A stretch of DNA of 61,057 nt from Thermoflexales bacterium. Its GTDB lineage: Bacteria; Chloroflexota; Anaerolineae; B4-G1; DUEL01. The translations under genes were made by a program, and so were the position numbers. Location: contig JACIWQ010000003.1 in NCBI GenBank assembly GCA_014360895.1, positions 1 to 61,057 on the forward strand, given 5' to 3'. The notes under the pieces are model-generated. The model was not told the DNA's origin. It searched no databases and was given only the letters and a program-made list of their open reading frames with translations. This document shows positions 2,516 to 48,198 of this stretch, piece after piece. Position 1 is the stretch's first letter; every line of letters begins with the position of its first letter.

Positions 2516-4714
2516 CTATTCCCCGCCGATGACCCTACGGGGGCGGCCAGCGGCCTCTGGCGGACCGACCAGCCCCATCTCCTCTAACCGCTCTATCAGC
2601 CGGGCCGCCGTGGGGTAGGCGATGCGCAACCGGCGCTGCAGGTAGGACGCGGAGATGGTCTCACGGGTCCGCAACAGGGCGATGGCCTGCTGGAGCAGGT
2701 CGTCCTCCTCCTGCATGGCGGACGGGGGAACGGCACCTCCGGCCGGCATCATGGATTCCCACGGCGCCTCGCTGGTCCAACCCGGCAGTTGCTGCCGCCA
2801 GAATTCCACCACCCGCTGAATCTCCGCCTCGCTCACGTAGCACCCCTGGAGCCGCACCGGATGGCCGGCGTCTGCCGCCAGGTACAGCATATCCCCTTTG
2901 CCCAGAAGCGTCTCCGCGCCGGGCATATCCAAGATGACCCGCGAGTCCACCTGGCTGGCCGTGGCGAAGGAGATGCGGGCCGGGAAGTTGGCCTTGATGA
3001 GGCCGGTCACCACGTCCACGCTGGGCCGCTGAGTGGCGACCACCAGATGGATGCCGGTGGCGCGGGCCATCTGGGCGATCCGGCAGATGGTCCGCTCCGT
3101 CTCTTCCGGGGCCAGCATCATCAGGTCCGCCAGTTCGTCTATCAGGACGACGATGCGGGGAAGCTGCAGGGAGGGGTCGCTCCGGCCCACTTTCTCGTTG
3201 TAGTCGTCTATGTGGCGGGCCCCGACGGCAGCGAAGCGGCGGTACCGCTCATCCATTTCGTGGGCCACCCACCGCAACACCCGACCGATGCGCTCCAGTT
3301 CCACCTCGGTCCGCCCCAGCAGATGGGGGAGGCCGTTGAAATGGACCAGTTCCACCATCTTGGGGTCAATCATTACAAACCGCAGTTGGTCGGGCCGATT
3401 GGTCATCGCCAGGCAGGTCGCCAGGGCCTTGATGCAGATGGACTTGCCGGAGCCGGTGGTGCCCGCGATGAGCAGATGGGGCATGGTGCTCAGGTCGGCC
3501 ACCACCGGGGTCCCCGCGACGTCCTCCCCCAGCGCGACGGTCAGGGGAGAGTCCATCGCGGCGAAGGCTTCGCTCTCCATAACCGAACGGAGGGGGACCC
3601 GGCTCACCCGGTCGTTGGGGACTTCAATCCCCACGACGGACCGGCCGGGGACCGGGGCCTCCACCCGCAGGGAGGGGGCCGCCAGGGCCAGCGCCAGGTC
3701 GTCGGCCAGGGCCGCAATCTGGCTGACCCGGACTTTGTGGGGGCGTCGCTGGCCGTCGGGGCCGGGCCGTTCGGTGAAGCCCGGAGCGATGCCGAACTGG
3801 GTGACCGCCGGCCCGCGCCGGACCTCCACGACCTGAACGGGCAATCCGAACTGGGCCAGTGTCTCCACGATGATGCGGCTTTTGCGGCGCACTTCTTCAT
3901 CGGAAAGGCCGACCTCCTCCCCTTCATCCAGCAGGTCCAGCGGCGGGAGGGAAGGTTCGGCGAAATCGGCCGAGGCGGACGGAGGAGCAGGCACCGCGCG
4001 GGCCGGCGCGGTCGGCGCGGGCGCCGGCTGGGGGGCGGCCGGAGCCGGACGTTCGGCGGGAGAGGGAGCCGAGGGAGCAGGGCGGGGGGATGGTCGGGCG
4101 GCGGGCTGGGCAGGCCGGGCCGCACGGGGGCGGGCCGGAGGGGGAACGGCGCGGCGTCGCCCCAGCCGTTCCCGGATATCGGCCAGGGTCCAATCCAGGG
4201 CCAGCCCCAGTCCCAGCAGGGTAAAGATGGTCAGCAGGACCCCGGCCACCGGCGGGCCCAGGTAGAGGGAAAGGACATGGGACAGGGCCCACCCGATGAC
4301 CCCTCCGCCCCATCCGCTCTGGAGGAGGGCCCAGGGGTCCCGGCGGCCCAGCAGCAGGTGGGTGAGGGCCAGCAGGCCGAAGAAGAGCAGTTCCAGCCCA
4401 ACCACCGGCCGCCACCGCCAGAGGACAGGACGGTCCAGATGGTGCTGGAGGATGAGGACCCCGCCCCATCCGATGGCGAACGCGACCGGCACCGCCCCCC
4501 AGCCGAAGACAAACTGAAGGGCATGGAGCCAGGCATCGGTCCAGCGGCCGGAGGTCACCCGCAGGAGGGTGAGGAACGTCAGGATAGATAGCAGAATCAG
4601 GCCCACGGCCAGGGTCTGCTGGGCGATGGGGCTGGTGAGCACTGCCCACCAAGGCCGACCCGGCGGCCGGGGGGCTGGCTTCTGTCCCGATGTTCCCTTT
4701 GGACGTGCGCTCAT
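2516..4714 (-). CDS. ftsK: DNA translocase FtsK/SpoIIIE
   Basis: 732 aa. N-terminal multi-TM region, Pro/Ala-rich linker, motor domain with Walker A GTTGSGKS and Walker B VVLIDELADL, and a C-terminal winged-helix gamma domain (ISASYLQRRLRIAYPTAARLIERLEEMG). Confidence 0.92.
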   Translation of the reverse strand: MSARPKGTSGQKPAPRPPGRPWWAVLTSPIAQQTLAVGLILLSILTFLTLLRVTSGRWTDAWLHALQFVFGWGAVPVAFAIGWGGVLILQHHLDRPVLWRWRPVVGLELLFFGLLALTHLLLGRRDPWALLQSGWGGGVIGWALSHVLSLYLGPPVAGVLLTIFTLLGLGLALDWTLADIRERLGRRRAVPPPARPRAARPAQPAARPSPRPAPSAPSPAERPAPAAPQPAPAPTAPARAVPAPPSASADFAEPSLPPLDLLDEGEEVGLSDEEVRRKSRIIVETLAQFGLPVQVVEVRRGPAVTQFGIAPGFTERPGPDGQRRPHKVRVSQIAALADDLALALAAPSLRVEAPVPGRSVVGIEVPNDRVSRVPLRSVMESEAFAAMDSPLTVALGEDVAGTPVVADLSTMPHLLIAGTTGSGKSICIKALATCLAMTNRPDQLRFVMIDPKMVELVHFNGLPHLLGRTEVELERIGRVLRWVAHEMDERYRRFAAVGARHIDDYNEKVGRSDPSLQLPRIVVLIDELADLMMLAPEETERTICRIAQMARATGIHLVVATQRPSVDVVTGLIKANFPARISFATASQVDSRVILDMPGAETLLGKGDMLYLAADAGHPVRLQGCYVSEAEIQRVVEFWRQQLPGWTSEAPWESMMPAGGAVPPSAMQEEDDLLQQAIALLRTRETISASYLQRRLRIAYPTAARLIERLEEMGLVGPPEAAGRPRRVIGGE

Positions 4715-4784
4715 TTCTACAGATTCACCGCAGAGAACGCAGGGCGCAGAGGCAATGTGTTCCCGCGCTTGCTGCAGTTCCCTA

Positions 4785-5774
4785 TCAAGACGCCGGGGCC
4801 GGTTCGGCCGCCTGACGGAGGCTGAGGCCCAGGCGGCGGCGGTCGGCGTCCACGTAAATGACCCGCAGCCGGACGGTCATCCCCTCCCGGACCACGTTGC
4901 GAGGATGCAGGAATTGACCTTCGGCCAGTTCGGAAAGGTGAATCAGACCCTCCACCCCTTCTTCTACCTGAGCAAACGCACCGAACTCCACCACGTTGGT
5001 GATGACTCCCTGGACAATCTGCCCGACCTGATACCGTTCTCCAACGGTGCGCCAGGGGTCCGGGTGGACTCGCTTCAGGCTCAGGCCGACTCGTCCGCGC
5101 TCCCGGTCCACATTCAGCACAGCGACCTGGACCTCCTGGCCCGGGCGAAGCAACTGGGCAGGGTGATTCACGCGGCTCCAGGAGATTTCGGAGATGTGGA
5201 TCAACCCCTCCAGTCCGCCCAGGTCTACAAACGCGCCGAAGGAGCAGATATTGGTCACTCTCCCCGTGCAGACATCCCCCGGCTGCAGCTGCTCCAGCAG
5301 GGCTTTCCGGCGTTGCTCTTCGGAATGGGTGGCCCGTTCGGAGAACACCAATCGCTGGCGCTCCGGGTCCACTTCAATGACATGGAGACGAAGAGTCTGA
5401 CCGAGGCGGGCACGCAGGGCCTCTTCCCGTTCCCGCTCGTCCATATAGGGGGGGAAGTCGGCCAGATGGGAGACCGGGACAAAGCCCTGGGTGCCGTTCC
5501 ACTCCACCAGCAGGCCGCCCCGATTGTAGCCGACCACCGGCAGGGTCAGGACGGCCTTTTCCTCCATCGCGCGGACGGCGGCGGCCCATCGTCCATCATC
5601 GGGCGGGGAAGGGGGCGCCCCGACGTCCGCCGACTCCGGTTCCAGGCCCAGCCCGAGCCATATGCTCTCGGGGTCGGCCGGGGGGGCCGAGCTTCTACTG
5701 TGCTCTCCCTCTCGCAGCAGGGCTTCCCAGTACGCTTCCGTGTAGGGCGCATTAGGGGGCAGAAAATCCACCAT
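4785..5774 (-). CDS. S1 RNA-binding domain protein (three S1 repeats)
   Basis: Repeated S1 motifs (GFVPVSHL, G.V.N...FGAFVDLGG.EGLIHISE, G.ITNVVEFGAFAQV..GVEGLIHLSE). I prefer the second ATG (cat 5772-5774) because a perfect GGAGGAGGTGG lies 1-13 nt upstream. The track ORF starts at 5798. Confidence 0.8.
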   Translation of the reverse strand: MVDFLPPNAPYTEAYWEALLREGEHSRSSAPPADPESIWLGLGLEPESADVGAPPSPPDDGRWAAAVRAMEEKAVLTLPVVGYNRGGLLVEWNGTQGFVPVSHLADFPPYMDEREREEALRARLGQTLRLHVIEVDPERQRLVFSERATHSEEQRRKALLEQLQPGDVCTGRVTNICSFGAFVDLGGLEGLIHISEISWSRVNHPAQLLRPGQEVQVAVLNVDRERGRVGLSLKRVHPDPWRTVGERYQVGQIVQGVITNVVEFGAFAQVEEGVEGLIHLSELAEGQFLHPRNVVREGMTVRLRVIYVDADRRRLGLSLRQAAEPAPAS

Positions 5775-5787
5775 ACCACCTCCTCCG

Positions 5788-6330
5788 CTATAACTCATTC
5801 AGTTTTCGCCAAAACCGTGCAGCACTCCGATTCCGATCGGCCGCTCGTTCCAATTGGAAATAACGGCCCACTCTTCTTGCCATCTCCATTTTAGTATACC
5901 AGTGTCCATACTTTTGAAAGAAAAGGTCCTTGAGTTCCGATACCGGGTCCGGAAGAGAGTCGGTCAGGCCCGACCACCCAGGGAGTCCCGTCGCCCTCTG
6001 GATAGCCTCATTATCGGCCAGCAACCACGCCTCCAGCATACGCGCGGCAACACAGATAACAACGTCTGGCTCGGAACGTACGGAGTCCAGCCGTTTCGCA
6101 GTTGCCGGGGGACATGGGTCTGTTTCCTGATCTAAAACGAAAAAGATGCGCTCAAATCCGGAACGCCGCAGGACATCCAAATGTCTGGACGCATCCCGGA
6201 TTAACAGGGAGCGCCCTCCTGCGTTGACGACTTTGACCGCTATTCCTCTCTGGCGCAGCCAGGGACAAAGACTCTCTTGGAAGAGGACCTCCAGCGATTT
6301 CCCTTCCACCACGAAACCAACCCGCCGCAT
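5788..6330 (-). CDS. DUF4276-family (Toprim-like) protein, partner of the upstream ATPase
   Basis: 180 aa. N-terminus VGFVVEGKSLEVLF (strand-EG-x-x-E, typical of DUF4276/Toprim), then GGRS and an acidic FFVLDQETD motif. The start ATG (6328-6330) directly abuts the ATPase TGA (6331-6333). Local GC is clearly lower than the flanks. Confidence 0.7.
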   Translation of the reverse strand: MRRVGFVVEGKSLEVLFQESLCPWLRQRGIAVKVVNAGGRSLLIRDASRHLDVLRRSGFERIFFVLDQETDPCPPATAKRLDSVRSEPDVVICVAARMLEAWLLADNEAIQRATGLPGWSGLTDSLPDPVSELKDLFFQKYGHWYTKMEMARRVGRYFQLERAADRNRSAARFWRKLNEL

Positions 6331-7518
6331 TCACGGCCTCCCCCTCTCAAGGTATCCCTGGAGCCAGAGTTCGTCCAGCGTGAAATGCTGCAGAAATTCC
6401 TGAATCTGCTCTATACTGTCGGCCCGTACAATCTGAGTACAGCCATCCACCTTGTCCATCAGATAGACCTCTTCGGGCAGGCAATGACGGACAAAGTCCG
6501 CACTATGCGTTGTGACAATCACCTGCGTTTGAGCAGAGACTTCTCGCATCAGTTGGACCAGTGGCTCCAGGACCAGGGGATGGAGGTTCCGCTCCGGCTC
6601 CTCCAGAAAAATGGCCGCAGGAGGGATGTCAGACCAGAGCAACGCACTCAGCAGGATCAGTAAACGCACTGTACCATCAGAAATCGCGATGGAGGGGAGC
6701 GCTCCCCTCACGCCACTTTCACGAACCCGGAAGGTGATTCGTCCATCCGCGAGCTCTTCGGTCTCCCAATCTTCAAATCCAGGAACCAGCATCTGAAGCA
6801 GGTCCCGAATCCGCTCGCGCGTCCCTCCATTAGACCGGATCACATGGAGCACGGCGGCCAGGTTGTCACCGGTTTCGGAGACGAAATGGGGAGTACGGAT
6901 CTCTGTCGGGAAACGGGCACTCTGAGTCAGAGGATCGTAAAATCGCCATCCCAGAAACATGTCGCTGATGATAGAAGAAGCCAGAGAGAAGAAGCGGGTT
7001 CGGACGAAAAGTTCTTTCTGGTTCGCTTCGCCGACAGATAGTTTGCGGGGGGAGTCGGACCACTCCCGGATCGTGACGTACTCCGTATCCCGTTCAAAAG
7101 CGGAAATTTCCTGCTCCTCTTCTATCCCCTCAGGGATACCGATGAGTGCTCCCTTCTCTTCCAAAACGACCAATTCCTGGTGGAACATCAGGTCGTAGGT
7201 AAACCGAAGGTTGCGGAACGGCTGTGTTTTCTTGCGCCCCACCGCTATGTTCAGGGTCTCCACCCCTAACGTGCCCCTCACCCCCAGAAGTGTGCTGCCT
7301 TTCCGGCGGCGACGGCAGCGCAGGTTGCTCCATCCGGCCCGACGGGCGACGGCTGTTTCCATCCCTTCCGCCACGCATTCCCGCAGGAAGCGGAATGCGT
7401 CCATTAAGTTGGACTTCCCCGCTGCGTTGGGCCCGATGAAGACACTGAACGGGGACAGAGGAAAATAGATTTCATCTCCGAAAGACTTAAAGTTGGCGAT
7501 TCGGATTTCTTGAATCAT
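6331..7518 (-). CDS. ABC/SMC-type AAA ATPase (AAA_15/AAA_21-like)
   Basis: Starts MIQEIRIANFKSF (RecF/SMC-like N-terminus). Walker A GPNAAGKS (7411-7434), signature-like ISDGTVRLL, Walker B AIFLEEPE, H-loop VTTHS. I use the ATG at 7516-7518; the 60 upstream codons of the track ORF overlap the preceding gene. Confidence 0.85.
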   Translation of the reverse strand: MIQEIRIANFKSFGDEIYFPLSPFSVFIGPNAAGKSNLMDAFRFLRECVAEGMETAVARRAGWSNLRCRRRRKGSTLLGVRGTLGVETLNIAVGRKKTQPFRNLRFTYDLMFHQELVVLEEKGALIGIPEGIEEEQEISAFERDTEYVTIREWSDSPRKLSVGEANQKELFVRTRFFSLASSIISDMFLGWRFYDPLTQSARFPTEIRTPHFVSETGDNLAAVLHVIRSNGGTRERIRDLLQMLVPGFEDWETEELADGRITFRVRESGVRGALPSIAISDGTVRLLILLSALLWSDIPPAAIFLEEPERNLHPLVLEPLVQLMREVSAQTQVIVTTHSADFVRHCLPEEVYLMDKVDGCTQIVRADSIEQIQEFLQHFTLDELWLQGYLERGRP

Positions 7519-9431
7519 CTTACCCCTCGTGCTTTCCGCTCTTCCCGTTCCATCTCCGCCAGAATGCGGGCCAGTTCCTGAATGGCGATGCGCTGTTTGC
7601 GGTAGAAGTCGGACTCGCTCATGGCCAGCCGCATGGCCACGTCCCGCACCCGGTAGCCCTTGATGAATTTCAATTCCAGGATGTTGTAGAGCAACCACTC
7701 GGTGGCTGTCAGGCTGCGCTCGCCCTCCGGGCGTAGTTGCTCAATCGCCCGCAGGAGGACGGCCCGCAACGCGTTGACCGGTCCGCCGTGGTCATCCGAG
7801 GCGCGCTCTACGACCTGTAAATTCAGGAGAGGACTGCGGGTCAATTTGGGGCCACCCCAGTAATGGTCCAGAGCGTCCCATACCCAGCGCGGGAAGTCCG
7901 GCGTGGCCAGGGGGTCGGAAAGACGGGCCAGCGCCGGTGCTCCCTCGTAGCGCAGCATCTCCCGCCGTCGCTGGATTTCCTCAATCTGGGGGATAATCCG
8001 CTCCAGGACGCCGAACAACGCCTGTTGAACCATCCGGTCTTCCAAGGCGGCCTCTATCTGGGCGGCCAGGGAATGGAGGAAGTCCTGCTCCTCGGCGCTC
8101 AGGTCCACCTCCGGGGAACGGGCCTGGAGCCCCAAAATGCCGATCAGTCCGTCGTCGGAGCGGGAGCGAAGCGGCAGGAGCCAGTACCCGTCCCAGACGT
8201 AGAGGTCTCCGGAGGGCTGAAGCCGGCCGGCCAGCGCGCCGATTCCCCTGGTGGGGAGAGAGAGGTCGGAGCCTATGGCCCCGCAGACGACCTCTATTCT
8301 CGCCTGGTCCCCCTCCACCACGGCCACAAACGCGGTGGGGGTCCGGAGAAGGTCACAGAGGGCGGTCAGAACGTTCTCCAGGAACTGTCGCAGGTCGGTG
8401 GTGGTCAGCAACCGGTTGCTCAGGCTCTGAATCCAGGCAATCTCCTGCTCGTCCCGCCGATAGAGCAGGCGGTCAATCAGCGGTTTGCTCCATTCCACGC
8501 CCAGTTGGATCAGCAGAATGGCGATGACGACGCCGAAGAGGGTCAGTTGGAGGGGGGAGAGCCCGAGGAGCCCGCCCGACTGGGACGCGGCGATAATGAT
8601 GGCCACGACCACGGTCGCCTGGAAGGGCCCGCGCAGGAGATAGCGGACGAAGCGGTGCTTGACCACCCGGTCGGGGGTAAGGGCGCCGAAGAAGGCGACG
8701 GTGTAGGCCATCACCATCAGCATGCTGCCCACGAAGAGGTTGCCCAGGACCAGCAGGAGCCAGAGGAGGACGGCGGGGAGCCGCTGCGGCCACCCTGTCA
8801 GCACCAGGTAGGGGAAGACGCCGACGGCGGGGGCCAGGGACGCCAGGGCCAGGTAGGCCATCCGGCGGCGGGAAGTGGAGGTGAGGCACCGCTCCCAGGC
8901 CCGGAGGACGTTCGCCACCCCCCAGAGAATAAAGAAGGCAAAGTAGAGGGAGAAGAACCAGAACTGGGGGCCGGCTCGCAGGTGGATGGTCCCGATTTGC
9001 AGGATGCCATCCCAGACGATGCGGTCGGTGAGGAGAGCACCCAAGAAGATGACGCCGCCCAGGGCGTAGGCGACTCCGACGGCCCATGCGCGCCGGCGGC
9101 TGCGGTCGTTGGTCGTTTCTAACAGGGCACCGGTAAAATGGAAGTAGGCGGCGGGGGTGAAGGCAATCCCCACCCACTGAAAGCGAAGCCACTCCAGGGC
9201 TACCTCCACCGGCGCCGCGACGATGACCAGTTCCACAAAGTAGACGATGAGGACGCAAAAGAGGAGGGCGCTGAAAATCTGGGCGACCCGGTTGCGGAAG
9301 TTATAGAGCAACAGGTAAATCGCCAGGGCGAAAGAGAGGATGACGACGCCCGACGTCAGCAGGATGTTCAGAAGTTGAAGAACGCCGATCCAGTTCACAA
9401 TCCCAATCGTCTCAACGCAAATGGGACCCAA
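7515..9431 (-). CDS. Multi-pass membrane protein with a GAF-like middle domain and a C-terminal sigma70-region-4/HTH-like domain
   Basis: 638 aa. Roughly nine hydrophobic segments in the first ~320 aa (resembles the HisKA_7TM type). Central TTDLRQFLENVL...AFVAVVEGD...GLIGILGL looks GAF-like. The C-terminus TEWLLYNILELKFIKGYRVRDVAMRLAMSESDFYRKQRIAIQELARIL looks like an HTH. The stop TGA (7515-7517) overlaps the ATPase ATG (ATGA). The start is a TTG at 9431 and is uncertain. Confidence 0.6.
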   Translation of the reverse strand: MGPICVETIGIVNWIGVLQLLNILLTSGVVILSFALAIYLLLYNFRNRVAQIFSALLFCVLIVYFVELVIVAAPVEVALEWLRFQWVGIAFTPAAYFHFTGALLETTNDRSRRRAWAVGVAYALGGVIFLGALLTDRIVWDGILQIGTIHLRAGPQFWFFSLYFAFFILWGVANVLRAWERCLTSTSRRRMAYLALASLAPAVGVFPYLVLTGWPQRLPAVLLWLLLVLGNLFVGSMLMVMAYTVAFFGALTPDRVVKHRFVRYLLRGPFQATVVVAIIIAASQSGGLLGLSPLQLTLFGVVIAILLIQLGVEWSKPLIDRLLYRRDEQEIAWIQSLSNRLLTTTDLRQFLENVLTALCDLLRTPTAFVAVVEGDQARIEVVCGAIGSDLSLPTRGIGALAGRLQPSGDLYVWDGYWLLPLRSRSDDGLIGILGLQARSPEVDLSAEEQDFLHSLAAQIEAALEDRMVQQALFGVLERIIPQIEEIQRRREMLRYEGAPALARLSDPLATPDFPRWVWDALDHYWGGPKLTRSPLLNLQVVERASDDHGGPVNALRAVLLRAIEQLRPEGERSLTATEWLLYNILELKFIKGYRVRDVAMRLAMSESDFYRKQRIAIQELARILAEMEREERKARGVR

Positions 9432-9939
9432 ATAACAGCGCGATATCTTGATTCCGCCAGTGGTGGTCGTGGTATCCCCGGAAGGAGAAACCCAGTGCCC
9501 GATAGAAACAGATCGCCGGATGGTTGCGGGTCGGTACCTCCACCAACAACTCGCCCAATCCTTTACCGGACGCCCATGAGATGACCTCCGCCATCAGGGC
9601 ACGGCCCACTCCCTGCCGCCGATGGGCCGGGTCCACCACCAGGTCGTATACCCATGCCAATCCGTGCCCCATCAGGGAGCGCGCCGTCACATATCCGATG
9701 ATTCCTTTCTCTTCGGCCACCAGGAACAGGTCGCACTCCTCCCATCCGGCGACCAGTTCCTTCCCCTGGCGGGGGTATGGAACAGGGATAGCTCGCGGGA
9801 GGCGTACGGGCTGGAAGGTAAGCGTGATGCCTCCCTGTTGCTCGTGCTCTTCCATCCGCCAGGCGTGGTCGGTGAGGACAGAGTGGTCCAGTTTCAAACA
9901 GGGCTCTATATCGGCGGGTCGGGCTTTGCGGATTCGCAT
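9412..9939 (-). CDS. GNAT family N-acetyltransferase
   Basis: 175 aa with the acetyl-CoA motif RRQGVGRALM and NHPAICFYRALGF. Overlaps the downstream 7TM gene by 20 nt. Confidence 0.85.
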   Translation of the reverse strand: MRIRKARPADIEPCLKLDHSVLTDHAWRMEEHEQQGGITLTFQPVRLPRAIPVPYPRQGKELVAGWEECDLFLVAEEKGIIGYVTARSLMGHGLAWVYDLVVDPAHRRQGVGRALMAEVISWASGKGLGELLVEVPTRNHPAICFYRALGFSFRGYHDHHWRNQDIALLFGSHLR

Positions 9940-10015
9940 GTGCTATTCCTGCGCAGTTATACCCAGATTCTACCATTGGAGGGGATAAGAGGCAAGTTTG
10001 TGATCGGTGTCCCCC

Positions 10016-25869: not shown

Positions 25870-26466
25870 CTACTCTTCCCCTGGAGACGGGAAGGAGTGA
25901 TGGGCCACCAGCCCCCAGTGCTGCGGGGGCCAGTAGCAGAGCCAGGCCTTACCGATGATGTTCTTTCGCGGCAACGGCCCCCAGGCGTGGGAGTCGCTGG
26001 AGTTGGCGCGGTTATCACCCAGGACGAAGTACTCATCCGGCCCCAAACTCCAGGCGCCGGTGTACGGGATGCCCGAATTCAGATACGGCTCATCCAGCCG
26101 GTACCCGTTGATCCAGACCGCGCCGTCCCGGATCTCCACCCGTTCCCCCGGCAGGCCGATGATGCGCTTGATGTAATCCTCTCCTGCCCCGTTGGGGGAG
26201 ACGAAGACGACAATGTCCCCGCGCTGGGGTTCGCCGAAGAGGTAACTGATTTTGCTGACGACCAGATACTGTCCATTGTGGAGCGTGGGCTCCATACTGG
26301 AGCCCCGGACGTAGAAGCGGCCTGTCAGCGCATTGATGACCAGATAGATCAGCAGCGCCAGGACAAGGCTTTCCACCATGTCCCGCAGGAAAGAACGGGC
26401 AGGTGACGGCCGCTCCGGTGCTAAGGGGTGCTCAGGTGTTTCCAGTTCGGTCAACGGTGGTTCCAA
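25870..26466 (-). CDS. lepB: Signal peptidase I
   Basis: GSSMEPTL (catalytic Ser), YIKRIIGLPGE (Lys box), GDNRANSSDSH. Confidence 0.92.
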   Translation of the reverse strand: MEPPLTELETPEHPLAPERPSPARSFLRDMVESLVLALLIYLVINALTGRFYVRGSSMEPTLHNGQYLVVSKISYLFGEPQRGDIVVFVSPNGAGEDYIKRIIGLPGERVEIRDGAVWINGYRLDEPYLNSGIPYTGAWSLGPDEYFVLGDNRANSSDSHAWGPLPRKNIIGKAWLCYWPPQHWGLVAHHSFPSPGEE

Positions 26467-26488
26467 CGGCGCCTCCCAGGCCGGTCGT

Positions 26489-27292
26489 TTATGGACGATA
26501 CGCGTAGAGAAAACCCAGATACGGGTGGACGGGATTGGGCGTTATCCGAGTCTGGAATCCATACTGATGCAAGTAACCAATCAAGTCGGTATGGGTGAAC
26601 CGGGTGAAGCCGTCGTGATATTCCAGGCATATCCTGGAAATCCTCTCCAGAGTGGTAGGGGAGGTCCCGAAAAGCACATCAAATTCGCATCCTTCGCAGT
26701 CCATTTTCAGGAAATCGCATCGCTCTATTCCGTTGATTGCAAAGGCATCATTAAGGGTCACCCCCTGGACTTCTGTGTACGGAATTGAGTCATCGGAGTG
26801 CCCCTCCAGTAGAATGGTGTGTTGAACGGCCTCTCCCTTAGCAAACAGTCTCACCTTCTCGTTTCTGGCTCCGACGGCCACCTGGAATGAGGAGATATTA
26901 TAGACATTATTCAGGGCGATGTTTTCTTCCAACAATTGGTACGAATCAGGAAAGGGCTCATAGGCATAGATGTGGCTATGGGGATTTTCGCGGGCAATTA
27001 GAATCGCGAAGTCCCCCAGACCAGCGCCGATGTCAACCACTGTCCAGCCATCCTCAATCGGTGTTCCGTACAACTCATATTGCCGGTCCAGGCAGGTTTC
27101 CTTAACGATCCAGACGTCCATCAGGCTTCGCACACGGAACCGGCAACCGTTTCTGAGCCGAATAACCGGGCGTTTGCCCCACAGGAGCATCAAGATGAGA
27201 GGCCAATTCTCAATTTGCCCAAAGATAGTCGGGATAGAACTGAGATAGTAGCGGATGCGCGAAGTTATCCCGGCGGCCCGAGTCATGGACAC
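26489..27292 (-). CDS. FkbM family SAM-dependent methyltransferase
   Basis: VVDIGAGLGDF (SAM motif I), AYEP, FLKMDCEGCEFDVL (FkbM hallmark). GC is markedly low: two 60-nt lines counted at 38 % and 43 %. Confidence 0.8.
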   Translation of the reverse strand: MSMTRAAGITSRIRYYLSSIPTIFGQIENWPLILMLLWGKRPVIRLRNGCRFRVRSLMDVWIVKETCLDRQYELYGTPIEDGWTVVDIGAGLGDFAILIARENPHSHIYAYEPFPDSYQLLEENIALNNVYNISSFQVAVGARNEKVRLFAKGEAVQHTILLEGHSDDSIPYTEVQGVTLNDAFAINGIERCDFLKMDCEGCEFDVLFGTSPTTLERISRICLEYHDGFTRFTHTDLIGYLHQYGFQTRITPNPVHPYLGFLYAYRP

Positions 27293-27319
27293 GTTCCTGA
27301 AGGGTTCAGCACCATATCA

Positions 27320-27796
27320 TTATAATCCAGATCGGTCAGGGGGCAACTCCTCCGAAACCACTCTCACTCCCTCCCGTCGCAGGAGGGCCGCGGTGACTCC
27401 CTCGCCAGGGATCAGCCGATGGGTATGGGTGCCGTCATAGATGCCGGAAGGGCTGCAGGAGGGACTGCGGGCCTTCATCACGGCGAGCCGAATCCCATAC
27501 CGCCGGACCAGGGCCAGCGCGACCTCTGCCCCCCGCAGGTAGGCCTCCGTCACGTCCTCTCCGGCGGCGGTGAGGACGCGCGCCCGTCCGTCCAGGACGT
27601 CGCCGCCGCTGCCGCCGACAATCTCTGCCGGTGGACGGGGCACCGGTAGCCCACCCGCAACCTCCGGACAGACCGGGACCACCCGCCCCAATGCTGCCAG
27701 CCGGACCAGTTCCGCCACCAAATGCCCGCGTCCGTCGTAGGACGTGGGCAGCCCCAGCAGACACGCACTGACCAGAACTACCCCGTTTTCCTCCAT
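27320..27796 (-). CDS. DUF523 (YbbK / 2-thiouracil desulfurase-like) protein
   Basis: VLVSACLLG.PTSYDG, VPVCPEVAGGLP.PRPPAE, KARSPSC. I use the ATG at 27794-27796; the longer track ORF would cover the divergent promoter. Confidence 0.8.
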   Translation of the reverse strand: MEENGVVLVSACLLGLPTSYDGRGHLVAELVRLAALGRVVPVCPEVAGGLPVPRPPAEIVGGSGGDVLDGRARVLTAAGEDVTEAYLRGAEVALALVRRYGIRLAVMKARSPSCSPSGIYDGTHTHRLIPGEGVTAALLRREGVRVVSEELPPDRSGL

Positions 27797-27837
27797 CGTT
27801 CCCCCTTGAGTCGCGAATCCGCTGGTATTATACCCAC

Positions 27838-27866
27838 TTGACATCCAGCACAAACTGTGCTATAAT
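27838..27866 (+). promoter_or_regulatory. Consensus sigma70 promoter of the GntR-family gene
   Basis: TTGACA (27838-27843), 17 nt spacer, TATAAT (27861-27866), with TG at 27858-27859 (extended -10). Confidence 0.6.
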
Positions 27867-27899
27867 CATAGCGCATTAGTTCAATGGATTATTGGTTCA

Positions 27900-28277
27900 A
27901 TGAGACTGCAGATAGACCCGGAGAGTCCTGTTCCCATCTACGTCCAGATTGAGGAGCAGGTACGGGCGCTGGTCGCGGCGGGGCAACTGCGCCCCGGCGA
28001 CCAATTGCCGACCATCCGGCAACTGGCGGTGGACCTGGGGGTGAACTACAACACCGTCGCCCGCGCCTATCTGGAACTGGAGCGCGCCGGGGTCATTACC
28101 ACCCAGCGTGGGCGAGGGACTTTCGTCGCGGGGATTCCGGACGAGGCCCGGCAGGCCCAACTGCGGGCGGAGAAACTGCGGGCCATCCTGCGGGCCGCGA
28201 TAGACGAAGCGCTCCATCTGGGGTATAATCGGGACGAAATCGCCGCCGCGTTCCGGGAGGAAATAGGACGCGGATGA
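27900..28277 (+). CDS. GntR family (YtrA-subfamily, short) transcriptional regulator
   Basis: PIYVQIEEQVRALVAAGQLRPGDQLPTIRQLAVDLGVNYNTVARAYLELERAGVITTQRGRGTFV, with only a ~55-aa C-terminal part. Confidence 0.9.
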   Translation: MRLQIDPESPVPIYVQIEEQVRALVAAGQLRPGDQLPTIRQLAVDLGVNYNTVARAYLELERAGVITTQRGRGTFVAGIPDEARQAQLRAEKLRAILRAAIDEALHLGYNRDEIAAAFREEIGRG

Positions 28278-46155: not shown

Positions 46156-47240
46156 ACCGCCATGTCGTTGCCGCGATGAGCGGAGGGGTGGATAGCAGCG
46201 TTGCGGCGGCGCTGCTGGTAGAGCAGGGCTACCGGGTGACCGGGGTGATGCTGCGCCTGTGGGCCGAGCCCGCCGCCGGTTGCCGGGAGAACCTCTGCTG
46301 TACGCCGGAGGCGGTGGAGCGGGCGCAGGACGTCGCCGCGCGGCTGGGCATCCCGTTCTATGAGGTGGACATGCGGGAGCCCTTCCGTCGCGCCGTGGTG
46401 GAGACCTTCATTGCCGAGTACGTCGCCGCCCGGACCCCCAACCCCTGTATCCCCTGCAACCGGGAAATTCGGTTCGGCTTGCTGATGCAGTGGGCCCGGG
46501 AGCACGGCGCGGACTTCCTGGCGACCGGCCACTATGCCCGCGTTCGCCGGGTGGGTGACCGCTACCAGTTGCTGCGGGGCCGGGACCGGGCCAAAGACCA
46601 GTCCTACGTCCTGCACATCCTGACGCAGGAGCAACTGGCGCATGTCCTTTTCCCCCTGGGCGACCTGACCAAGACGGAGGTTCGGGAAATGGCGCGGGCC
46701 CGGGGCCTCCCCGTCGCCGACCAGCCGGAGAGCCAGGACGTCTGCTTCCTGGCGGACGGGGATTACCGCCGGTTCGTCGCCGAACATGCACCGGAGGCGG
46801 TCCGGCCCGGCCCCATCCTGGATACATCGGGTCGGGTGCTGGGAGAGCACAGGGGGTTGATTCACTACACCGTCGGGCAGCGGAAGGGCATCGGGGTCGC
46901 CGCGCCGGTTCCCCTCTACGTCCTGGCGCTGGACCCCCAGCGCAATGCCCTGATTGTGGGGCGGGCGGAGGAGTTGGGGCAATCGGAGTGCATGGTCGCC
47001 CGGATGCACTACATCTCCGGCGAGGAGCCGCCCGGGCCCTTTGAGGCCACTGCTCAGATTCGCTATCGGCACCGAGAGGCGCCGGTTGTGGCCACGCCGT
47101 TGCCCGGAGGACGGCTCCACGTCCGTTTCGCCGTCCCCCAGCGGGACATCACCCCAGGCCAGTACCTGGTGCTCTATGACGGCGAGATGGTCCTGGGGGG
47201 TGGGGTGATTTGTGCGCCCTGGGAAAACGTGATACAATAG
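46152..47240 (+). CDS. mnmA: tRNA-specific 2-thiouridylase (tRNA U34 2-thiolation)
   Basis: PP-loop VVAAMSGGVDSSVAA, NPCI.CN, KDQSYVL, F.LG...K.EVR..A, QDVCF. Confidence 0.95.
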   Translation: MNRHVVAAMSGGVDSSVAAALLVEQGYRVTGVMLRLWAEPAAGCRENLCCTPEAVERAQDVAARLGIPFYEVDMREPFRRAVVETFIAEYVAARTPNPCIPCNREIRFGLLMQWAREHGADFLATGHYARVRRVGDRYQLLRGRDRAKDQSYVLHILTQEQLAHVLFPLGDLTKTEVREMARARGLPVADQPESQDVCFLADGDYRRFVAEHAPEAVRPGPILDTSGRVLGEHRGLIHYTVGQRKGIGVAAPVPLYVLALDPQRNALIVGRAEELGQSECMVARMHYISGEEPPGPFEATAQIRYRHREAPVVATPLPGGRLHVRFAVPQRDITPGQYLVLYDGEMVLGGGVICAPWENVIQ

Positions 47241-47266
47241 GAAAAACCTGCGGGAGCCCCGTCCAG

Positions 47267-47758
47267 ATGAAGCGACCCATCCTGGAGCGCGTGGCGGAAG
47301 AACTGACGAGGAGATATACCCGAGCCCTGGGGTCCAACCTGGTGGCTCTAGCTTTCTTCGGCTCCTGGGCCAGGGGGGAGGAAACAGAGAGCAGCGACCT
47401 GGATATTCTGCTGATCGCCTCGGAACTGCCAGATCACCCGTTGGAGCGGAATCGCCTGATCTACGAACCCCTTCAGGGCTGGAAAGGAAAGCCCTGCTCC
47501 ATCTCCGTATTGGCCCGAACCGTGCGGGAGTTTACGGCCGACATCACCCCTCTCCACCTGGACCTGGCCGCCGATGCCATCATTTTCTATGACCCGCAGG
47601 GTTTTCTGAAAGCCAAACTGGACCAGGTCCGGGGAATCATTGCTCAAGCCCGTCTGGTTCGAGAACGGGATGCTTATGGATTGTGGGCCTGGTGGTGGGA
47701 GAAGGGCGCCGAGCCTTCGGGTCGCTGGGCCATTACATGGGCCGGGGTTCAGAAATGA
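47267..47758 (+). CDS. Nucleotidyltransferase-domain protein (putative antitoxin of an NT/HEPN pair)
   Basis: FFGSWARGEETESSDLDILLI NTase motif. The stop overlaps the ATG of the next (HEPN) gene (ATGA at 47755-47758). Confidence 0.75.
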   Translation: MKRPILERVAEELTRRYTRALGSNLVALAFFGSWARGEETESSDLDILLIASELPDHPLERNRLIYEPLQGWKGKPCSISVLARTVREFTADITPLHLDLAADAIIFYDPQGFLKAKLDQVRGIIAQARLVRERDAYGLWAWWWEKGAEPSGRWAITWAGVQK

Positions 47759-48198
47759 TTTCGGCGAAGGATGCCCTCTTCCGGTTGGAGACTGCCCGGC
47801 GCTACCTGGCCGCTGCGGAAAAACTGCAAGAAGCACAAGAGTGGCCGGGCTGTGTGCATTACGCCCAACTGGCCGTGGAAAACGGAGTGAAGGCCATCCT
47901 GGCCTGCTGGGGACCTGTGCCCCGCTCCCACGACCTGACGGAATGGCTGCATCGGATTCTGGACCAGGATTTGCCGGATGAGATCCGCTCTCGTATCCAG
48001 CAACTGATTCCGCTTGCAGAGGAGTACGGTCGGCAGAAGCACGTTATGAGCACGTACGGCGATGAGGAGACATTTCTAACCCCGTGGGACCTTTTTGATG
48101 AAACCGATGCTCAGAAGGCGGTGGAAGACGCCCGTCAGTGTGTTACCCTTGCGGGAGAGATCTACGAGCATCAGTTTGGAGAACCGCCATCCCGTTGA
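47755..48198 (+). CDS. HEPN domain protein (putative toxin of an NT/HEPN pair)
   Basis: 147 aa, all-helical. A..L..A...L.....W..CV.YAQLAVE..VKA pattern and RSHDL motif, typical of HEPN proteins paired with minimal NTases. Confidence 0.7.
   Translation: MISAKDALFRLETARRYLAAAEKLQEAQEWPGCVHYAQLAVENGVKAILACWGPVPRSHDLTEWLHRILDQDLPDEIRSRIQQLIPLAEEYGRQKHVMSTYGDEETFLTPWDLFDETDAQKAVEDARQCVTLAGEIYEHQFGEPPSR

Follow-up and report, generated by a model that had tools for sequence, protein, structure and literature searches.

HEC-01 is the PADLOC "Hma-embedded candidate 01", defined from genes within Hma defence systems (10.1101/2024.01.29.577857). It consists of a gene for an ABC ATPase, with an insert (Insert 1) that extends the beta sheet, followed by a gene for a small TOPRIM (DUF4276) protein. 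HEC-01 is among the more abundant candidate systems, and its functional record so far is one negative and one weakly positive test. The representative that Payne et al. tested in E. coli protected against none of the phages (10.1101/2024.01.29.577857); with another representative, E. coli B was protected from one or more of T4, T5 and T7 (10.1101/2024.09.26.614923). In MADS, a homologous pair, mad3 and mad4 (AAA_15/21 ABC ATPase and DUF4276), is required for defence (10.1101/2023.03.30.534895; PMC12065111, PMC11464382).

Other systems have a similar architecture. PARIS is split into an AAA_15/21 ABC ATPase and a stand-alone Toprim nuclease, in which the ATPase serves as both sensor and scaffold and the Toprim protein is released as the effector (PMC11464382). 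In AbiL (AbiLi/AbiLii, RloA/RloB-type), the partner of the ABC ATPase is a small protein of the Toprim family, and OLD and Gabija GajA have the ABC ATPase and Toprim domains fused in one protein.

The gene pair and its surroundings

We analyzed a 61,057-nt stretch of DNA (the window) from a Thermoflexales bacterium, a member of a thermophile-type Chloroflexota lineage. An earlier note on this DNA had described an ATPase gene and a 180-aa open reading frame as a possible conflict system. Both reading frames, the four ATPase motifs and the abutting stop and start codons are where that note had placed them. The features of the locus are as follows.

5771..7535, minus strand: whole accessory cassette, about 1765 nt, the span between the two points where homology to empty sites ends
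6331-7518, minus strand: HEC-01A-type ABC ATPase, 395 aa, starts MIQEIRIANFKSF
7411-7434, minus strand: ATPase Walker A, GPNAAGKS (sequence motif)
6919..7311, minus strand: variable, mostly beta-strand ATPase insert (approximately residues 70-200), a candidate sensing surface (conservation and model)
6670-6681, minus strand: ATPase signature, SDGT (sequence motif)
6592-6609, minus strand: ATPase Walker B, FLEEPE (sequence motif)
6502-6513, minus strand: ATPase H-loop, TTHS (sequence motif)
5788-6330, minus strand: HEC-01B / DUF4276 Toprim-like protein, predicted metal-dependent nuclease effector, 180 aa, starts MRRVGFVVEGKSLE and contains LDQETD
6304..6306, minus strand: codon of E9, the Toprim Glu just after strand 1 (family alignment and model)
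6124..6132, minus strand: codons of D67-Q68-E69, which form the DxD-type motif of Toprim where strand 3 ends (family alignment)
6013..6033, minus strand: codons E100 to D106 (E100, W102, D106), near-invariant, after strand 4 (family alignment)
7515..9431, minus strand: HisKA_7TM-GAF membrane protein gene (Pfam HisKA_7TM and GAF), upstream flank, outside the cassette
4785..5774, minus strand: gene for a protein with three S1 domains, downstream flank

The genes are closely packed. The ATPase ATG overlaps the stop codon of the 7TM gene (ATGA, 7515-7518), and the ATPase stop (TGA, 6331-6333) abuts the ATG of the DUF4276 gene (6328-6330), with a zero spacer and in the same orientation. Only 13 nt, containing GGAGGAGG, separate the DUF4276 stop from the most likely S1 start, the ATG at 5774; the open reading frame start at 5798 is disfavoured. 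A longer ATPase reading frame from GTG 7698 (455 aa) was rejected: every homologue begins with MI.EI..NFKSF, and the added stretch would run into the 7TM gene.

The neighbours of the pair in the window are GNAT, 7TM-GAF, S1 and FtsK genes. The S1 gene adjoins the pair downstream, as the earlier note had it; the adjoining upstream gene is HisKA_7TM-GAF, and ftsK, which the note had also listed as a neighbour, lies one gene beyond S1. The limits of the cassette came from blastn against empty-site relatives (L015, L012, L017, L019), in which 9997..7536 and 5770..2519 of the window align and nothing between them does.

The cassette differs in composition from its surroundings. The pair is 55-56% GC with a GC3 of 0.58-0.65, compared to 61-70% GC and a GC3 of 0.72-0.89 for neighbouring genes. 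At 0.5575, it is the lowest-GC 1765-nt stretch of the window; the mean is 0.649 (sd 0.030), and a value this low occurs in only 0.04% of such stretches. Cassette GC was below that of the surroundings in 11 of 12 contexts. The claim of a low-GC pair thus holds for the window, and the composition is foreign in the occupied relatives as well.

The pair is HEC-01

Both proteins matched the HEC-01 models over their full length. The ATPase matched PADLOC HEC-01A (PDLC04176) with an E-value of 1.4e-61 (residues 2-395 aligned to positions 3-370 of the 371 in the profile), and the small protein matched HEC-01B (PDLC04191) at 8.3e-18 (residues 1-179 on 1-187 of 192). HEC-01 calls for a match to each model by genes that are adjacent and co-oriented, and all of this was found here. 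In Pfam, the ATPase matched AAA_21 (7.5e-29) and AAA_15 (4e-19), and the small protein matched DUF4276 (1.2e-8; 35.9 bits, above the gathering cut-off of 30.2), in agreement with the family that the earlier note had proposed for it. A DUF4276 gene was directly downstream in every homologous ATPase examined. We conclude that the pair is of an already catalogued kind, the candidate system HEC-01, and that the combination of an ATPase and DUF4276 is not new, with Mad3/Mad4 a related pair.

The resemblance to HEC-01 extends to gene content and gene order. Unlike the genes that define HEC-01, the cassette stands alone in a housekeeping operon and is not embedded in Hma or another defence system, and its host is a thermophile-type Chloroflexota. 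The pair embedded in BREX-1 on E. coli plasmids has approximately 28% identity with the cassette. The ATPase also matched the PADLOC mad3 model (4.2e-25), but it scored 112.8 bits on NCBIfam MAD3, for which the cut-off is 420, and the other mad genes are absent nearby; the detection model of the MADS authors requires MAD6-8.

The match of the ATPase to PADLOC AriA of PARIS (1.2e-28) covers residues 24-340, which is also the generic AAA_21 region, and is far weaker than that to HEC-01A; that to AbiLi (1.2e-28) is likewise much weaker. The PARIS effector is DUF4435, whereas that of the cassette is DUF4276, with no DUF4435 or AriB match in Pfam or PADLOC at E-values up to 0.1. In Pfam and PADLOC, neither the RloB nor the AbiLii models matched the sequence of the small protein; its sole tie to AbiL is the resemblance of its model to a viral RloB-like protein, described below. 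Unlike OLD and GajA, the cassette has its two domains in separate open reading frames; sequence similarity to these proteins is confined to the N-terminal P-loop region, and no GajB-like helicase is near the cassette.

Predicted structures and conserved residues

The small protein is predicted to have a Toprim-like fold. Members of the Toprim superfamily are alpha/beta proteins with four parallel strands, in which a conserved Glu follows strand 1 and an acidic DxD-type motif follows strand 3. The AF2 model had a pLDDT of 92.4, with strands at residues 2-8, 30-36, 61-68 and 90-96. Its best solved-structure match in Foldseek was the Toprim region of OLD from B. pseudomallei (6nk8), a moderate match (TM 0.46-0.48, E 3.7e-4), and its best match in the viral library was an RloB-like protein (TM 0.56). 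A PDB sequence search with the DUF4276 profile found nothing below E = 0.77. In the family alignment, E9, at the end of the 2-8 strand in the model, is Glu in 144 of 152 members (95%), D67 is found in 149 (98%), and 134 (88%) have D or E at position 69; E100 and W102 are each present in 150 of the 152 and D106 in 145. The earlier note had proposed the Glu and DxD layout of Toprim. The Glu and a conserved acidic motif are indeed there, but the motif is D67-x-E69 (DQE, a DxE variant) and not a DxD that includes D71. Based on the model and the alignment, we consider the small protein a predicted nuclease of Toprim-like fold, with a Glu after strand 1 and a DxD-type motif after strand 3.

The ATPase model (pLDDT 94.6) matched the ABC folds of SMC heads, PtuA and OLD. 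In this model, residues 75-161 consist entirely of beta strands, and no solved AriA chain was among the top 50 fold matches, a further difference from PARIS. Among eight versions at the locus, mean column conservation was 0.54-0.73 in the insert and 0.8-0.93 in the catalytic core, and the ATPase motifs were invariant.

The cassette is accessory at a fixed chromosomal spot

Most related genomes lack the pair. Of 13 informative related species genomes, 10 had empty sites, in which the 7TM gene is followed directly by the S1 gene, and three were occupied. The flanks of an empty site (L012) and an occupied one (L007) are nearly identical, and the 7TM-GAF protein is 90-95% identical in empty-site relatives. 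The 7TM-GAF and S1 genes, considered as functional parts of the cassette, are both intact in empty-site genomes and are thus flanks only. We conclude that the cassette is accessory and polymorphic at a fixed chromosomal spot in Thermoflexales.

These findings bear on whether the pair could be a lineage-specific housekeeping pair of RecF, SMC or OLD type, acting in repair or RNA processing together with the S1 and FtsK genes and behaving like core genes, with its odd composition due to something else. That reading seemed possible while the first relatives all carried the pair at the locus. It fits the SMC/RecF-like N-terminus of the ATPase, the fact that all occupied genomes have the pair at one and the same locus, and the co-orientation of the pair with S1 and FtsK in what is apparently one operon. 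It was rejected when the scan of species genomes turned up the 10 empty sites, in which S1 and FtsK are intact, and is largely refuted by this pattern of presence and absence. The persistently foreign composition argues against it as well; a pair present in all relatives with native composition, which is what a core gene would look like, is not what was found. The strong purifying selection on the pair favours a housekeeping role, but the age of the versions, their conflict with the flank tree (both described below) and the unrelated contexts of the relatives, including the inside of BREX, do not, and we regard such a role as very improbable.

Cassette versions are much more diverged than their flanks. 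At this precise site, the occupied genomes carry four or more versions that are deeply diverged, with cassette proteins only 58-67% identical where the flank proteins are 88-94% identical. The dS of the cassette was approximately 1.7 or saturated, compared to 0.3-0.6 in the flanks, and dN/dS was 0.08-0.24, indicating that both cassette genes are under purifying selection, as judged from their sequences. The versions long predate the split of their hosts. Fast evolution in place was ruled out as the source of the divergence since synonymous sites were saturated too. Swapping of ATPase and nuclease partners, considered for the window and L001 (85% versus 67% identity), is unsupported: the ATPase and DUF4276 trees are broadly congruent with each other. 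The versions disagree with the flank tree, and the diverged versions have probably been exchanged by homologous recombination through the conserved flanks. We tested for hitch-hiking of flank DNA with imported versions and found no fall in flank identity toward the junctions.

Versions sharing 56% identity or more are all at this locus and form one clade. Because all close versions are at one locus within Thermoflexales, the cassette is a long-standing, polymorphic occupant of a hotspot. The claim that the pair was horizontally acquired agrees with its absence from many relatives and its foreign composition, but a recent arrival it is not.

In its natural variation, the locus behaves like an immune gene: its presence is variable, its versions are old and diverged and under purifying selection, its variability is focused in the insert, and its catalytic residues are fixed. 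Tentatively, and with less conviction than for the reading of the cassette itself given below, we raise the possibility that the Thermoflexales HEC-01 clade is a long-lived balanced immune polymorphism, with at least four old versions and the empty state maintained at a single core-genome site that lacks mobility genes, shuffled between lineages through the flanks and wired into the S1/ftsK transcription unit. If so, expression of the cassette and the cost of its loss would be tied to downstream cell-cycle genes, the S1 promoter having been replaced. The versions at one site, together with matched empty-site genomes, are a natural series that could be used to map recognition by the insert and the cleavage target of the DUF4276 protein.

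The cassette replaces the promoter of the S1 gene

At empty sites, there is a TTGACA-N17-TATAAT sequence upstream of the S1 gene. In the window, no promoter-like sites were found in 4600-9700. With its promoter replaced by the cassette, the S1 gene in the window is probably transcribed through the cassette, and expression of the cassette itself most likely rides on the host operon. At the other end, the C-terminal tail of the 7TM protein departs from that of empty-site relatives from approximately ...EMEREER onward, its last codons having been replaced by the insertion. In L007, the cassette is placed after the -35 element; elsewhere it starts at the 7TM stop.

No mobility gene was found at the cassette, consistent with the earlier observation that neither an integrase nor a transposase flanks the pair. 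The cassette flanks had no integrase, no convincing terminal repeats and no target-site duplication, and there are no tRNA genes in the whole window. We considered whether the two genes might themselves drive the movement of a small, as yet unrecognised mobile element, as a Toprim-type DNA-cleaving enzyme and a site-targeting ATPase. Insertions at one precise site with slightly different junctions (L007 versus the others), a MITE-like insert at the same spot in the empty site of L012, and the lack of any other mobility gene would all fit. However, an element of this kind is hard to reconcile with the missing repeats and duplication; moreover, the versions at the locus are one clade, indicating one old insertion rather than repeated ones, and relatives of the cassette are passive passengers inside BREX and restriction-modification operons. 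We know of no transposase built as an ABC ATPase with a Toprim-type enzyme. We therefore give this explanation very little credence.

A probable role against invaders

We think it likely that the locus is a promoterless cassette of a HEC-01 ATPase and a DUF4276 Toprim-type nuclease, present as old, exchanged versions at a fixed hotspot, with a role against invaders by analogy to related systems. The computational checks that the earlier note had proposed all favoured its interpretation, and none of its refuting outcomes that could be computed was seen. The cassette would be likely to share the sensor and effector logic of PARIS. By analogy with PARIS, OLD and AbiL, an oligomer of the ATPase would probably hold the nuclease inactive, and an invader would probably be sensed through the variable beta-rich insert. 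ATP binding or hydrolysis might then release or activate the Toprim nuclease, whose cleavage of nucleic acid, be it DNA, tRNA or another RNA, would stop the infection or the infected cell.

A different function for the same two genes would be as a selfish addiction module, similar to a toxin-antitoxin system, kept in place by a nuclease that is toxic without the ATPase and by its capture of the transcription of S1 (and ftsK beyond), with no real protection from phage. The negative result of Payne et al. with HEC-01 is in line with this, as is the Pfam description of AAA_21 as a putative AbiEii toxin of a type IV toxin-antitoxin system. Removal of the S1 promoter by the cassette means that a clean loss would need the promoter restored, and the tight packing with zero spacing recurs in several unrelated operons. 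On the other hand, many sites are empty, and these are scattered between occupied ones in very close relatives, which shows that loss or absence of the cassette is clearly tolerated; an arms race would better explain the deep diversity of versions and its focus in one ATPase insert than simple addiction; and the second HEC-01 did protect against phage. An addiction module is unlikely, in our view, though less so than a housekeeping pair or mobility machinery.

Carriage by phages was also considered. No close relatives were found on viral contigs, and those in IMG/VR and GenBank phages were remote (at most 34% identity).

Relatives of the cassette are found in both defence and housekeeping contexts. 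There are relatives inside BREX-1 on E. coli plasmids and beside an Eco57I-like methylase, which speaks for a link to defence. In the window and in L025, L029, L030 and L037, the pair is among housekeeping genes and not in a defence island, which speaks against it. The locus is an example of a promoterless, defence-type cassette that lives in a housekeeping operon without a mobility gene, and the same promoterless, zero-spacer arrangement, an "operon hitch-hiker", is present in the unrelated genomes L025, L029 and L030.

The ATPase and DUF4276 genes in a co-oriented gene string

The genes for the ABC ATPase and the small DUF4276 protein were part of a string of co-oriented genes:

9412-9939, minus strand, GNAT acetyltransferase
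7515-9431, minus strand, HisKA_7TM-GAF membrane protein
6331-7518, minus strand, ATPase, 395 aa
5788-6330, minus strand, small protein, 180 aa
4785-5774, minus strand, protein with three S1 domains
2516-4714, minus strand, FtsK

The 7TM stop codon and the ATPase ATG overlapped as ATGA, the ATG of the small gene directly abutted the ATPase TGA (with GGGGGAGG six nucleotides upstream of that ATG), and 13 nt containing GGAGGAGG separated the TAG of the small gene from the S1 start, which is most likely at 5774. The motifs that an earlier note had listed for the two proteins were all found where it had placed them. In a mechanical ORF list the ATPase began further upstream, at GTG 7698 (455 aa), so that 7518-7698 (minus strand) overlapped the 7TM gene in a different frame; the aligned homologues rule out this extension.

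The C-terminal end of the 7TM-GAF protein (7515-9431, minus strand) was helix-rich (…LTATEWLLYNILELKFIKGYRVRDVAMRLAMSESDFYRKQRIAIQELARIL…) and, on reading the sequence, resembles sigma-70 region 4 or a LuxR-type helix-turn-helix. A Pfam search of the protein did not call a C-terminal helix-turn-helix domain. If the resemblance holds, it would suggest a membrane-anchored one-component regulator.

Both proteins match the candidate defense system HEC-01

The top PADLOC match of the ATPase was HEC-01A (1.4e-61, full length); matches to AriA, AbiLi and mad3 were generic and far weaker. Pfam matches were to AAA_21 (7.5e-29), AAA_15 and the N-terminus of SMC_N. An AlphaFold2 model that drew on 93 homologues was confident (pLDDT 94.6, pTM 0.92), and the nearest solved structures (SMC heads, PtuA of Septu and retron systems, and Thermus OLD; TM 0.40-0.54) were all ABC ATPases. 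Residues 75-161 of the model formed an all-beta insert, in agreement with HEC-01A as described by Payne et al. (10.1101/2024.01.29.577857). When the versions of the pair at this locus were aligned, their differences clustered in the insert (residues ~70-200), and Walker A, signature, Walker B and H-loop were invariant.

The small protein was a DUF4276 protein with a Toprim-like fold, as the earlier note had proposed. It passed the Pfam DUF4276 gathering score and matched PADLOC HEC-01B over its full length (8.3e-18). Its model was confident (pLDDT 92.4, pTM 0.87), with a four-stranded beta-alpha pattern; the top PDB match was 6nk8, the Toprim-containing C-terminal region of B. pseudomallei OLD (E 3.7e-4, TM 0.46-0.48), Thermus OLD ranked sixth, and the top viral-model match was an RloB-like protein (TM 0.56). 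In an exhaustive profile search, representative clusters numbered 1030 (E up to 1e-3). Over 152 family members from that search, E9 (95%), D67 (98%), E100, W102, D106 and S169 were near-invariant, and position 69 was D or E in 88%. The proposed Toprim layout of Glu plus a DxD-type motif is therefore real; in the small protein itself the motif is DQE. DUF4276 has already been placed in the Toprim superfamily (PMC12065111), and AAA15/21 plus DUF4276 (MADS3-4) has been counted among ABC-ATPase + TOPRIM defense pairs (PMC11464382).

The interpretation of the pair as a candidate defense module is supported. However, HEC-01 is an existing catalogue entry for this architecture, and Mad3/Mad4 of MADS is a related pair. 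The ATPase scored under the NCBIfam MAD3 cut-off (112.8 versus 420 bits). In E. coli, one HEC-01 failed to protect (Payne et al., 10.1101/2024.01.29.577857), another was protective in E. coli B for at least one of the phages T4, T5 and T7 (10.1101/2024.09.26.614923), and MADS defense was weakened by deletion of mad3 and mad4 (10.1101/2023.03.30.534895). The pair has two folds with intact catalytic motifs, and its genes are obligately paired, accessory and under selection. PARIS, OLD and AbiL suggest by analogy that the ATPase would serve as both sensor and scaffold, with the Toprim protein as a predicted nuclease effector held inactive until triggered.

More distant homologous pairs were found in two settings, either within defense loci or standing alone, with zero spacing, in housekeeping operons. 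One pair lay between BREX-1 pglX and pglZ on E. coli IncHI1B plasmids, and another adjoined an Eco57I-like methylase and a DUF87 ATPase. Stand-alone pairs lay between the PBP1A gene and surE, before hisH, and after an MFS transporter gene. These stand-alone pairs, wedged into operons of unrelated genomes (L025, 8001-9796; L029, 74-1820; L030, 8001-9739), had overlaps of 0-4 nt, with ATGA overlaps because the conserved Met-Ile start is ATGATT. The DUF4276 ORF followed the ATPase in every homologue examined; that of L025 (9233-9796) was missed by the source annotation. Distant ATPase homologues occurred in 239 plasmid records, mostly conjugative, and only remote relatives in viral contigs and phage genomes.

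Old versions and empty sites at the locus

The part of this analysis worth keeping is the population picture: no mobility genes accompany this hotspot, its versions are old and diverged, empty states are frequent, and a promoterless cassette sits in the S1 promoter region. The nearest homologues of both proteins were all from Thermoflexales/Anaerolineae MAGs and metagenomes (at least 56% identity for the ATPase and 58% for the small protein), and all shared the order GNAT, 7TM, ATPase, DUF4276, S1, FtsK. On its own, this shared locus would suggest a core gene; empty sites, discordant flank history and foreign composition argue against that reading. We scanned the site in one genome per species by S1 protein alignment, obtaining 14 loci, 13 of them informative. 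The presence/absence comparison proposed earlier found the S1 gene directly after the 7TM gene in ten (L012, L014-L020, L023, L024), and only three were occupied. Empty and occupied genomes were interspersed in the flank tree, with L012 (empty) and L007 (occupied) as sisters.

The cassette versions long predate the divergence of their hosts and are not simply fast-evolving. Flank proteins of the window were 88-94% identical to those of loci L004 and L007, versus 67% and 59% for the ATPase and 65% and 58% for the small protein; in the more distant L001, flank proteins were 63-79% identical and the ATPase 85%. Synonymous divergence was 1.7 or saturated in the cassette and 0.32-0.6 in the flanks, which gives the versions their greater age. 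Both genes are under purifying selection (dN/dS 0.08-0.24). Against outside homologues, all versions at the locus grouped as a single clade; the tree of the ATPase was congruent with that of DUF4276. The simplest history is a single old insertion, followed by long persistence of several version lineages (the window/L001/L022/L034 type and the L004, L007 and L039 types), probably with exchange between lineages via the conserved flanks and repeated loss.

The composition of the cassette stays foreign. As the earlier note had read from two short stretches, GC was low: 55-56% (GC3 0.58-0.65) versus 61-70% (GC3 0.72-0.89) in the neighbors, and the cassette was the lowest-GC 1765-nt stretch in the window, ~3 standard deviations under the mean. 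All occupied relatives showed the deficit, as did 11 of 12 contexts overall.

Two other low-GC stretches were observed in the window. The second lowest (0.572; ~26200-28000) encodes, on the minus strand, a signal peptidase S26, an FkbM-type methyltransferase and a 2-thiouracil desulfurase. The other (~0.58 around 47.5-49.3 kb) holds a nucleotidyltransferase ORF (NTP_transf_2/Polbeta; 47210-47758, plus strand) overlapping a HEPN-domain ORF (1.4e-12; 47683-48198, plus strand); together (47210-48198) they look like an MNT-HEPN toxin-antitoxin-type pair.

The cassette occupies the promoter region of the S1 gene

Homology to empty-site genomes stopped at 7536 and restarted at 5770, and thus the cassette is 5771-7535. 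No repeats, tRNA or integrase flanked it; the note had likewise seen no integrase. Empty sites had a consensus sigma-70 promoter (TTGACA-N17-TATAAT) and a GGGAGGA ribosome-binding site ahead of the S1 gene; the promoter was perfect or near-perfect between the 7TM stop and the S1 ATG in L014, L015, L016, L019 and other empty sites, and its -35 hexamer contained the 7TM stop codon. In the window, L001, L004 and L022, this promoter and the original 7TM tail were missing and the cassette began at the 7TM gene end. L007 retained the -35 element, followed by a cassette that has a TATAGT of its own and a leader of 177 nt. The cassette in the window lacks a promoter of its own and stands where the S1 promoter would lie. 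No promoter-like site was found across 4600-9700; most likely, therefore, transcription of the S1 gene runs through the cassette.

The empty site of Thermoflexus sp. RSWP15 (L012) had a ~150-nt insert (~2858-3010) immediately after the 7TM stop, in the intergenic spot held by the cassette in other genomes. Its ends are inverted repeats (TAACTATTCAG ... CTGAATAGTTA), and it resembles a MITE.
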